This document shows, piece after piece, positions 489-3,817 of a stretch of DNA of 32,000 nucleotides (positions within the stretch are counted from its first letter, which is position 1; each line of letters starts with the position of its first letter). The stretch covers positions 614,499-646,498 of the forward strand of contig JAWAHN010000001.1 in NCBI GenBank assembly GCA_038889235.1, read 5' to 3'. Origin of the DNA: Candidatus Jordarchaeales archaeon (GTDB lineage: Archaea; Asgardarchaeota; Jordiarchaeia; Jordiarchaeales; Freyrarchaeaceae). The position numbers were made by a program, and so were the translations under genes. The notes beneath the pieces are model-generated. The model was not told where the DNA came from. It did not search any database and saw nothing but the letters and a program-made list of their open reading frames with translations.

Positions 489-2442
489 TTGTTGAAGACC
501 GGTGAAAGTGAAATAGACTGGAAGGCTGTTGGCTTTACGGCTGGTCTAGAAGTTCACCAGGAATTGCTCACGCCGCGCAAGCTTTTCTGTCGCTGTTCCC
601 CTAAACTTAGGAATGACCCGCCTCACTTTACAATTAAAAGATTTTTCCGCCCCGTTCTCGGGGAAATGGGGGAGTACGATCCCGCTATGCTGGCAGAGTA
701 TGAAAAAGGTAAAGTCGTCATTTATGAAGGATACTATGATACTACTTGCACGTATGAGTTGGACGAAATGCGCACGCGGTAGCGCGTGTGCACGCTAAAC
801 GCCTCCGTTTGAAATTTCACAGGAAGCGCTGGAAATAGGGTTGGAGATAGCGCTGCTCCTGAAAGCTAGAATTATCGTTGACGAACTTCATGTCTGCCGT
901 AAAATGTACCTTGATGGCTCTGTTCCATGCGGCTTTCAGCGCACGCTCATAATAGGTATGAATGGAAGTATACCAATAAATGGAAAGGAGATCCCCATCG
1001 AGACAATTTGCATAGAAGAGGACGCTGCGCGCAAAGTTAAGGAGGAAAAGAATACTGTATATTACCGGCTTGACAGGCTCGGCATACCTTTAGTGGAAAT
1101 AGTGACTGCGCCTTGCATAGAAAGCCCGGAGGAGCTCGTCGAAACAGCGTTCAGGATAGGGCTCCTTCTTAGGAGTACAGGGAAGGTTAAGCGCGGGATT
1201 GGAACTATAAGACAGGACATAAATGTGAGTATAAAGGGAGGGGCGCGGGTCGAAATAAAGGGTGTCCAGAAACTTGAGTGGCTTCCTAAGCTAGCTAGAA
1301 ACGAGGTCATACGACAGCTTTCCTTGTTGAGGATAAAGGAGGAGCTTACACGCAGGGGGGTTAGGGAAGAGGACTTGAAGCTGGATGTCAAGGATGTAAC
1401 GGAGATTTTCAAAAATACGCAGAGCAAGATACTTAAACCGAGAGGTGGCGAAAGAGTTTTGGCTGTACGTCTCCCTAAGTTTTCAGGAATACTTGGAGTT
1501 GAGGTGCAGCCGGGTAAACGCTTTGGTAAAGAAATCGCCGAAAAAGTGCATGCGTACACGGGTCTTGCAGGCATAATACATTCAGATGAGGACCTTAAAG
1601 AGTATGGCATTAGCGACGACGAAAGAAGAGAGCTTTGCCGGGTGCTGAGCATTGAAAGTGACGACGCCTTTGTCATAGTGAAGGCACCTCGAGACATCGG
1701 AGAAAAGGCCTTGGAAATTGTCGTTAATAGAGCTAAGCAAGCTCTAAAGGGAGTGCCAAACGAAACTAGGCGTGCTTTGGAGAACGGGAACAGTGAGTTC
1801 CTACGAGAGCTTCACGGAGGGGCACGTCTATACCCCGATACCGACACGCCTCCTATAAAAATCGGTCGAGAGCTTAAAGAAAGGGTCGCCAGCAGGCTTC
1901 CAACGCCGCCATGGAATCTCAAGGAGGAACTTGTAAGAAAATACAAGATAAGTGATAGGTTTGCTGATGAACTTATACTCGAAGGTAAGGTATTCCTTTT
2001 CAGGGAGGTTGTCGACGAATACGGCATTGATCCCGTTCTCGTAGCCTCTGTCCTTCTGCAAACTCTTAAGGCCTTAGAAAGGGAGGGAGTAAAGGTCGAC
2101 GAGGTATCCGAAGAGGAGCTCAAGGACGTCTTCAGATGTCTTTCAGAAGGAAAAATAGCTAAGGAAGCCATAGGACCGCTTATTGCTAAGCTTGCAGAGG
2201 AGCATGTGGGCGTGGAGGAAGCGTTAAAGAAGCTGGGGATAAGACCGTTATCCGACGAAGAACTCGAAAAACTGATTGGCAAGATAGTGGAAGAGAACGT
2301 TACCCTCGTCAGGGAGAGGGGTGAAAGGGCCTTCGGCCCATTGATGGGTGTTGTTATGAGCCACGTGAGGGGTAGAGTGGATGGAGGAAAAGTCGCCGAA
2401 GTTCTGAAGAGAAAAATAAGGGAGGTGTTGGCAGTTGGCTGA
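489..2442 (+). CDS. gatE: Glu-tRNA(Gln) amidotransferase subunit E, interrupted; predicted join(489..767,799..2442), 640 aa
   Basis: ORF 489..782 has the GatE N-terminus (GLEVHQEL, KLFCRC, TTCTYELDE). The frame of ORF 841..2442 is open from 799 (TPPFEISQEALEIGLEIALLL...GFQRT...RLDRLGIPLVEI...GIGTIRQDINVSI...GARVEIKGVQ...RLYPDTD). It lies directly upstream of gatD. The start could be TTG 489 or TTG 492. Confidence 0.93.
768..798 (+). other. Putative 31-nt bulge-helix-bulge (BHB) intron in gatE mRNA
   Basis: Sequence ATGCGCACGCGGTAGCGCGTGTGCACGCTAA (20/31 GC). It has a 10-bp hairpin 769-778/783-792 with one G-U pair, AAA bulges at 766-768 and 797-799, and a central helix 762-765/793-796 with 3 of 4 pairs. 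Removing it restores the reading frame (ELDE|TPP). Confidence 0.8.
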
Positions 2443-3817
2443 GGATACACTTAGAGGGTACAGGGGGTTTGTAAGGGAGAAATTGGAAAAAGCAGGTGTA
2501 AAGGTGTGGAGCGTTGTACGGATAATAACTCCTGACGCTACTTATGAAGGCATACTATTACCGAGGAGCGAACTTGGGGACGAAGATCACGTTGTGTTAA
2601 AACTTAAGAACGGGTATAACATAGGCGTGAAAATCACGAAGGATGCAGTTATCGAAGAGGTAGGATATAGCCCAGGTCGTTACGTTCTGCCGGAGAGGAA
2701 AGTTGAGTTTAAGCCAGGGAAACCGCGGGTGTCATTGATAGGAACTGGTGGGACAATTGCTAGCAGACTTGATTACAGAACAGGAGCAGTAATACCTGCC
2801 TTTACCCCTCAAGAGCTCTTTAGCGCAGTTCCAGAATTAGAAGAGATATGTAATTTGGAGACCATCTCACTCTTTGAAATATTCTCTGAGGACATGCAGC
2901 CCGAACATTGGGTGAGGATAGCTGAAAAAGTAGCGGAAGAGGTTAGGAGGGGGGCTGACGGCGTAATAATTGCCCATGGAACCGACACTATGCACTTCAC
3001 CTCAGCAGCGTTGTCATTCATGCTGAAAGATTTACCTGTTCCAGTAGTCTTGGTTGGAAGTCAGAGAAGTAGTGACAGGCCTTCAAGTGATGCTGCTATG
3101 AATTTGATAGCCTCTGCAATCGTTGCCGCTAGGAGTGACATCGCAGAAGTTGTCGTGTGCATGCATGGAAGCAGCAGTGACGACTACAATGTAATACATA
3201 AGGGGACTAGAGTTAGGAAGATGCATACAAGTAGGAGGGACGCTTTTAAAACTATAGGAGACATGCCTCTAGGGATTGTCGTTAACGGAACAATACATAT
3301 GTTAAGAGGCGACTATAGGCGTAGGAGTAAGCATAAAGACGTTACCGTGGATGCTAAGATAGATCCAAAAGTAGTTTTGCTCTACACCTATCCAGGAATG
3401 CAAGCAGACATCATAGAACACGTCGTAAGCGCGGGTTACCATGGCATAGTTCTTGCGGGTACGGGACTTGGACATTGTCCTAAGACTATAATACAGCCTT
3501 TAGAGAAAGCGATAAGGGATGGAGTCGTTGTCGCCATGACATCGCAATGCTTGTACGGATTTGTGGGAATGAACGTTTACGAGAGGGGAAGAGACTTACT
3601 CAAAATAGGCGTAATACCCTGCGGGAACATGTTGCCAGAAACAGCATACGTTAAGTTGATTTACGTTCTGGGACACACTAGGGATGTTGACGAAGTTAAG
3701 AATTTGATGACACTCAACATGTGCGGGGAAATCACGAATGGAGAGTCGTACAACGCGTACTTGATTGCCCAAGGAGGACTAGAGGAATACATTAAGAAAC
3801 AAAAAAACTTACTCTAA
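2435..3817 (+). CDS. gatD: Glu-tRNA(Gln) amidotransferase subunit D
   Basis: N-terminal GatD domain plus asparaginase-like motifs GTGGTIAS, HGTDTM, GSQRSSDRPSSD and RKMHTSRRDAF. Overlaps the gatE stop and has SD GGAGGTG. Confidence 0.96.
   Translation: MAEDTLRGYRGFVREKLEKAGVKVWSVVRIITPDATYEGILLPRSELGDEDHVVLKLKNGYNIGVKITKDAVIEEVGYSPGRYVLPERKVEFKPGKPRVSLIGTGGTIASRLDYRTGAVIPAFTPQELFSAVPELEEICNLETISLFEIFSEDMQPEHWVRIAEKVAEEVRRGADGVIIAHGTDTMHFTSAALSFMLKDLPVPVVLVGSQRSSDRPSSDAAMNLIASAIVAARSDIAEVVVCMHGSSSDDYNVIHKGTRVRKMHTSRRDAFKTIGDMPLGIVVNGTIHMLRGDYRRRSKHKDVTVDAKIDPKVVLLYTYPGMQADIIEHVVSAGYHGIVLAGTGLGHCPKTIIQPLEKAIRDGVVVAMTSQCLYGFVGMNVYERGRDLLKIGVIPCGNMLPETAYVKLIYVLGHTRDVDEVKNLMTLNMCGEITNGESYNAYLIAQGGLEEYIKKQKNLL

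Follow-up and report, generated by a model that had tools for sequence, protein, structure and literature searches.

The closest described counterpart of the element reported here is the intron in the pre-mRNA of cbf5, a pseudouridine synthase gene of Crenarchaeota (Watanabe 2002; Yoshinari 2006; Yokobori 2009, PMC2738675), a short bulge-helix-bulge (BHB) intron that lies within coding sequence, occurs in a lineage with a hetero-oligomeric splicing endonuclease (EndA), is conserved over an order-level clade and is missed by gene callers. Papers of 2020 and 2025 still have cbf5 as the sole coding-sequence case (PMC7714728; PMC12397907, the latter citing only cbf5 papers), a status it has had for over twenty years. 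We examined a 32,000-nucleotide (nt) stretch of Asgard archaeal DNA (contig JAWAHN010000001.1, positions 614,499 to 646,498 of the forward strand; hereafter the window), in which gatE, a gene for a tRNA-dependent amidotransferase that is required for producing Gln-tRNA, is interrupted by 31 nt that an earlier note on this DNA had read as a tRNA-type (BHB) intron. Inserts at the same site in relatives, covariation of the paired strands, selection on the exons and the presence of EndA and RtcB genes lend that reading strong support, and the candidate intron resembles the cbf5 intron in each of the features just listed. The two differ in gene and lineage (a pseudouridine synthase in Crenarchaeota, an amidotransferase in Asgard archaea) and in the kind of evidence, since cbf5 splicing, by the tRNA-splicing machinery, was demonstrated by reverse transcription PCR and in vitro cleavage whereas that of gatE is inferred from sequence.

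Other related systems are more distant in one respect or another. The BHB intron of Haloferax volcanii HVO_1309 (Schwarz 2020, PMC7714728) is also an mRNA substrate of EndA, as shown by circular RNA sequencing and in vitro cleavage, but it lies in the 5' untranslated leader and leaves the reading frame intact, whereas the GatE protein could not be made without excision. In the complete Freyarchaeia genome and the two complete Atabeyarchaeia genomes of Valentin-Alvarado et al. 2024 (PMC11291895), 92-95% of tRNA genes were reported to contain introns, many of which sit at non-canonical positions. These short tRNA introns (PMC11291895; bioRxiv 10.64898/2026.10.13.758758) belong to the same clade as the gatE intron and share its motif and presumed enzymes, but both papers deal with tRNA genes only, and protein-coding introns are mentioned in neither. 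Like the process proposed here for gatE, the splicing of HAC1/XBP1 in eukaryotes (PMC13149111) is a spliceosome-independent, protein-catalysed excision of a short intron from mRNA that changes the frame and is completed by a tRNA ligase (RtcB in metazoa); unlike it, the endonuclease is IRE1, two stem-loops rather than a BHB are recognized, and the reaction is a regulated stress response. In full-text searches of the literature, no BHB intron was found to have been reported for gatE or for any protein-coding gene of Asgard archaea, and the Asgard Jordarchaeia and Freyarchaeia are absent from the published record of mRNA introns, in agreement with the earlier note, which had taken the locus to be new and the lineage to be possibly so.

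Results

The source genome, a metagenome-assembled genome of 8 contigs that is 95% complete, belongs to an Asgard archaeon, Ca. Jordarchaeum of the Jordarchaeia (genus g1). Its gatE gene, on the plus strand, is broken into exon 1 (489-767; 93 codons from a TTG start), which ends in ...TYELDE (GAA 765-767), and exon 2 (799-2442; 547 codons plus the stop), which opens with ACG 799 (TPPFEISQEALEIG...) and encodes TPPFEIS.... Between them lies the putative BHB intron (768-798, plus strand, 31 nt), with its ends set by cuts that follow nucleotide 2 of each bulge. Left unspliced, gatE consists of open reading frames (ORFs) of 97 amino acids (aa; TTG 489 to TAG 780-782) and 533 aa, and the insert contains a stop in both relevant frames, TAG 780-782 in that of exon 1 and TAA 796-798 in that of exon 2. 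When nucleotide 767 was joined to 799 in silico, a GatE of 640 aa was obtained; the predicted junction in the spliced mRNA is GGACGAA|ACGCCUCCG and the predicted junction-spanning peptide is ...YELDETPPFEISQEALEIGLEIALLLK (segment ...ELDETPPFEIS...). In Pfam searches, exon 1 matched positions 3-34 of the GatB_N profile, and exon 2 matched positions 47-275 of the same profile as well as GAD and GatB_Yqey, such that the domain hallmarks of GatE (GatB_N, a GAD insertion and a C-terminal GatB_Yqey) are found across the two exons together, with gatD adjoining. Aligned with the GatE of Odinarchaeum, the spliced product was gap-free at the junction (query residues 100|101), and the DNA surplus was exactly 31 nt. 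The insert is richer in GC than the gatE gene (20/31, or 0.645, vs 0.48), the earlier note having found it richer than its flanks, and every coordinate given there, for the exon ends, the 31-nt offset, the stem, the bulges, the central helix, the stops and the 640-aa product, is correct to the base. Decoding of the intron TAG as pyrrolysine was considered and rejected, as this reading would still meet TGA 808-810 in the wrong frame.

The RNA across the two predicted splice points can be drawn as a BHB, all of whose elements lie on the plus strand. The central helix (H) pairs the exon nucleotides GACG (762-765) with the intron nucleotides CGCU (793-796), as G-C, C-G, an A.C mismatch and G-U in the source genome and as four pairs out of four in most relatives. 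It is bordered by the 5' bulge AAA (766-768; predicted EndA cut 767/768) and the 3' bulge AAA (797-799; predicted cut 798/799). Within the intron, the inner helix (h'; 769-792) joins 769-778 to 783-792 over 10 bp, one of them G-U, and is closed by the loop GUAG (779-782), which holds the in-frame TAG 780-782. In the source genome, an outer helix (h) forms between 756-761 and the exon 2 nucleotides 800-805 through the pairs G761-C800, U760.G801, G758-C803, A757-U804 and G756-C805. With another contig of the same genome as background, a geometry at least as good as that of gatE (central helix with at least 3/4 pairs, inner stem with at least 10 consecutive pairs, outer helix with at least 2/3) occurred at 1.2e-5 per position-and-length combination; in gatE both position and length are fixed, because collinearity and the reading frame must be restored.

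The Freyarchaeia form the second family of the same order, which includes the complete 3.58-Mb genome CP147778.1. When both exons were used in tblastn searches, an insert was found at the identical codon boundary (DE|TPP) in 11/11 species genomes of the class, with lengths of 31 (source genome), 30, 35, 29 and 30 nt among members of the Jordarchaeum family and a uniform 30 nt across the six Freyarchaeia. The insert was likewise present in five of five metagenome contigs of the clade, four of which repeat genome sequences while one (L074) is new. Among 41 relatives, the frame containing the exon 2 match is about 550 aa long in all 11 genomes of the order vs about 640-650 aa elsewhere. Orthologues from beyond the order have the two codons side by side and DETPP uninterrupted, and these intron-less genes, which the earlier note had thought worth seeking, are collinear with the spliced product. 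The gatE intron is placed already in the common ancestor of Jordarchaeia and Freyarchaeia.

The note had also proposed that relatives be examined for covarying stems, and the inserts of 29, 30, 31 and 35 nt at this site have them. Eleven distinct insert sequences were aligned and scored against the BHB model. The central helix (alignment columns 9-12 with 44-47) was 97.7% paired. As its third pair (columns 11-45), the Jordarchaeum family has C-G where Freyarchaeia have U-A (once U.G); because the 5' partner of this pair is the wobble base of an Asp codon (GAC/GAU), a synonymous change in the exon is compensated by a G to A change in the intron. The inner stem, which comprises 6-10 bp in relatives, was also 97.7% paired, with both-sided changes in 6/8 aligned pairs, and the central helix and inner stem together have both-sided changes in seven pairs. 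Both AAA bulges were invariant in all 11 sequences (3' bulge, columns 48-50). None of 500 shuffles matched the observed pairing or covariation, and displacement of the 3' partner by 1-3 columns reduced pairing to 19-51%.

A stop in the exon 1 frame was found 3-4 codons into the intron in 11/11 sequences, TAG in all but G004, which has TGA at the same codon. The occurrence of a stop in every insert, together with lengths that are not multiples of three (e.g. 29, 31, 35), rules out a translated insertion, and the retention of the stop even in 30-nt in-frame inserts argues against the insert being meant for translation. This stop may act as a fail-safe, keeping unspliced RNA from being translated into a GatE lengthened by ten residues within a conserved segment. 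We also observed that the in-intron stop occupies the same position in the loop in L005-L014 and L074, even where a 30-nt intron keeps the frame.

Across the phylum, shortened gatE frames were sought among the approximately 150 best matches listed from a sample of 301 genomes, and among these matches the Atabeyarchaeia (family f13), the sister class to the Freyarchaeia, were the only other lineage interrupted at this site. Three Atabeyarchaeia genomes carry gatE inserts of 41, 41 and 35 nt with a canonical hBHBh' motif (L030:1452-1492 in G021; L065 in G031; L064 in G041), in which the central helix is AGGC/GCCU, the bulges are AGA/AGA (one genome has AAA for the second), the inner stem has 5-9 consecutive pairs and the outer helix 3-4 of 4. 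Excision would join GAG GCA G|AU GAG to give ...LEADEEPPHP..., in phase 1 of the Asp codon. The splice point is 5 nt upstream of the Jordarchaeia site, and the intron sequences are unrelated; the two introns may go back to a single ancestral intron that shifted its position or to two gains. Four other short gatE frames were set aside, two at contig ends (G084, G048) and two contiguous at this site (G288, G058), and apparent internal stops in gatE of G024 and G058 were not reproduced.

Exon 1 is 83-89% identical in amino acid sequence to its congeners. Against two congeners, exon 1 has a nonsynonymous divergence (dN) of 0.052-0.067 and a saturated synonymous divergence (dS, at least 1.9); the dN of exon 2 is about 0.12, and omega is about 0.03-0.05 in both exons. 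The low dN combined with saturated dS indicates strong purifying selection on both exons, and by these estimates the constraint on exon 1 is no weaker than that on exon 2, and exon 1 shows no decay. No start codon is conserved for exon 2; the first ATG, GTG or TTG lies at codon -18, 15, 18, 20, 29, 31, 41 or 106 depending on the genome. No second gatE was found in the genome, only a GatB, and there is a single gatD. Glutaminyl-tRNA synthetase (GlnRS) was not found in the 95%-complete assembly, which contains a single class-I Glu/Gln-type synthetase gene. A dead gatE had been judged unlikely from the outset, and the dN of 0.05-0.07 for exon 1 and the failure to find another gatE or a GlnRS are in keeping with that judgement.

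The enzymes that such an intron would need are encoded in the genome, which has one RtcB gene and two tRNA_int_endo (PF01974) genes for EndA paralogues of 196 aa and 195 aa. As read from the translations, the 196-aa (α-like) paralogue retains the catalytic Tyr, His and Lys, and the 195-aa (β-like) paralogue is without the His. The closest chains to the 196-aa protein are 3p1z_B, 3ajv_B, 2zyz_B and 2cv8_A, which we take to be catalytic subunits of crenarchaeal heterotetramers. The predicted pair fits an (αβ)2 architecture. An (αβ)2 EndA has been deduced for most Asgard genomes (bioRxiv 10.64898/2026.10.13.758758), and PMC5829648 describes the cutting of relaxed BHB motifs by αβ- or ε-type EndA.

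A motif-free census, in which 2,036 ORFs of the complete Odinarchaeum genome were compared with the source genome and adjacent match pairs with a small DNA surplus were collected, recovered gatE, its protein aligned without a gap and its DNA in surplus by exactly 31 nt. About ten further genes were split by inserts of 19-34 nt, and a frame-restoring BHB was resolved for six of them, named from Pfam except for leuD, which was named from its junction peptide: cbf5 (G000:C1:835887-835915, 29 nt); leuD (C2:145890-145918, 29 nt); aEF-2 (G000:C1:445935-445963, minus strand, 29 nt), in which an insert with the central helix ACGU/GCGU and bulges AGA/AAA interrupts the G-domain motif DTPGH|VDF; protein-L-isoaspartate methyltransferase (PCMT; G000:C1:804315-804345, minus strand, 31 nt); a Toprim-domain protein (C1:972079-972112, minus strand, 34 nt); and a LeuC-type aconitase large subunit (C2:318659-318687, minus strand, 29 nt). 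For rpl44e (C1:~836941-836965, surplus 29 nt), the automatic search gave no clean intron placement, and no clean BHB placement was obtained for a 444-aa protein with no Pfam match (G000:C2:~133880-133910, plus strand, surplus 29 nt) or for a 97-aa protein (G000:C1:~894789-894809, minus strand, surplus 19 nt). A motif-based scan of the genome (BHB plus two-frame fusion) had yielded about 11,500 candidates before and 1,889 after filtering by coding potential, mostly ordinary gene boundaries, and this filter lost gatE itself; the comparison with Odinarchaeum was used in its place.

Two further surpluses were also seen, one of about 59 nt in a fused 30-kDa/49-kDa hydrogenase or complex-I-like subunit (G000:C1:549841-549889, minus strand) and one of about 16 nt in a chorismate synthase/mutase fusion (G000:C2:361432-361464, plus strand). 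Both have poor BHB geometry and may reflect differing linkers instead of introns. In 7/10 split genes, gatE included (residue 93 of 640), the coding sequence is interrupted within its first third, although the sample is small.

With regard to the surroundings of gatE, the window starts with a fragment of a radical-SAM-like gene on the minus strand, followed on the plus strand by gatE and by an intact gatD (2435-3817, 460 aa; Pfam GatD_N, Asparaginase and Asparaginase_C), which encodes the partner subunit and whose start overlaps the end of gatE by 8 nt. Scans of the window for tRNAs and Rfam families gave no matches. Other strong candidates in the window that combine a BHB with a gene fusion (e.g. 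minus strand ~19,650; plus strand ~28,670) are ordinary gene boundaries.

Discussion

We assign a probability of about 0.88 to the reading that 768-798 is a genuine archaeal BHB intron in the coding sequence of gatE that is excised from the mRNA by the tRNA-splicing enzymes. Splicing, that is cleavage and ligation, is proposed because the motif is conserved and covaries, the exons are under selection and the enzymes are present. In the proposed mechanism, the gatE-gatD pre-mRNA would fold locally, with exon nucleotides 762-765 paired to intron nucleotides 793-796 and the AAA bulges on opposite strands. The host EndA, with its α-like and β-like paralogues, would cut after the second nucleotide of each bulge, at 767/768 and 798/799, and RtcB would join the exons to yield ...GAC GAA|ACG CCU... 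and a 640-aa GatE with the family segment ...YELDETPPF.... Unspliced RNA would give only the 97-aa fragment, by way of the conserved stop four codons into the intron.

Several observations weigh against this proposal. The fold of 745-816 is not significantly stabler than those of shuffled sequences (z = -0.54), the minimum-energy register of the same fold bulges A763 rather than forming the A.C pair, and the central helix of the source genome contains this A.C mismatch together with a G.U pair; because the thermodynamic z is uninformative, covariation was relied on instead. The outer exon-exon helix described in the earlier note is present in the source genome, but it is not conserved in relatives, where 58% of its cells are paired and the bulge-adjacent pair is confined to the source genome (1/11). 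With the outer helix so poorly conserved, the 3' site would rely on a relaxed motif in most members. Because archaeal ribosomes can start translating an RNA that is still being transcribed, splicing has to outpace them or tolerate their presence. In addition, no full-length (~640 aa) GatE of this clade is present among 5.8 billion database proteins, the public clade entries all being exon 2 fragments of 469-564 aa without the N-terminal 93 residues; as gene callers miss the intron, GatE annotations of the clade are truncated.

The alternative that survives best, though we regard it as very improbable, is a split gene, in which the 97-aa and ~530-aa polypeptides would assemble non-covalently and the hairpin would serve as a terminator or as a translational-coupling element. 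Split genes exist in some archaea, e.g. Nanoarchaeum, both pieces of gatE are conserved and under purifying selection, and public annotation already calls exon 2 a stand-alone GatE. However, exon 2 is without a conserved start codon and the break falls within the conserved DETPP segment, and a split gene would leave unexplained the covarying 4-bp helix between exon and insert, the covarying inner stem and the invariant 3-nt bulges.

Still less credence is given to translational bypass, in which ribosomes would hop over the 29-35 nt in the style of T4 gene 60 with the hairpin as the signal. The locus has a superficial likeness to gene 60 in that a stable hairpin immediately follows the take-off codon, with a stop a few codons on, but its take-off codon, GAA 765-767, is not matched by a GAA landing codon before ACG 799, where the preceding triplets are CUA and AAC, or UAA. 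A hop could dispense with the exon-intron 4-bp helix and the second bulge, both of which are conserved and covarying, and many other genes of the same genome carry the same motif. It is similarly implausible that the insert is removed from the RNA by machinery other than EndA and RtcB, with the BHB-like shape incidental to another nuclease or a ribozyme. The poor conservation of the outer helix would agree with such a machinery, but the conserved features are exactly those read by EndA (two 3-nt bulges 4 bp apart), EndA and RtcB are encoded, and 29-35 nt falls far short of the length of a group I or II ribozyme. Finally, although the source is a metagenome-assembled genome, in which frame breaks are common artefacts, there is a negligible chance that the 31 nt arose during assembly or that they disable a gene in decay. 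Eleven independent assemblies from different sites, including the complete Freyarchaeia genome G006, long-read validated by its authors (PMC11291895), carry an insert at this position, as do JGI contigs; omega is about 0.03-0.05 in both exons; and this gatE is the only copy in a genome where GlnRS was not found.

Read as a BHB intron, the insert makes gatE probably a second gene, unrelated to cbf5 and probably indispensable, with a splicing-endonuclease intron, and it adds a new gene and a new phylum to the kind first described for cbf5. The presence of the gatE intron throughout the class and of a neighbouring intron in the sister class suggests that tRNA-type splicing of mRNA is regular in these lineages and no one-off, which bears on the spread of introns into coding sequence in archaeal relatives of eukaryotes. 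At such loci, gene calls, completeness estimates and metabolic inferences for these genomes would be systematically wrong. A broader reading, which we offer tentatively and consider unlikely as it stands, is that the gatE intron is part of an old clade-wide system predating the split between Jordarchaeia/Freyarchaeia and Atabeyarchaeia, in which a dozen or more housekeeping genes (gatE, aEF-2, cbf5, rpl44e, PCMT, LeuC/LeuD and others) could be expressed only after mRNA splicing by EndA and RtcB, with the in-intron stop as a fail-safe and splicing as a control point that ties the synthesis of translation factors to tRNA-splicing capacity. If this were true, pervasive and obligatory pre-mRNA splicing catalysed by proteins would have its first prokaryotic example in these archaea, relatives of the eukaryotic ancestor.

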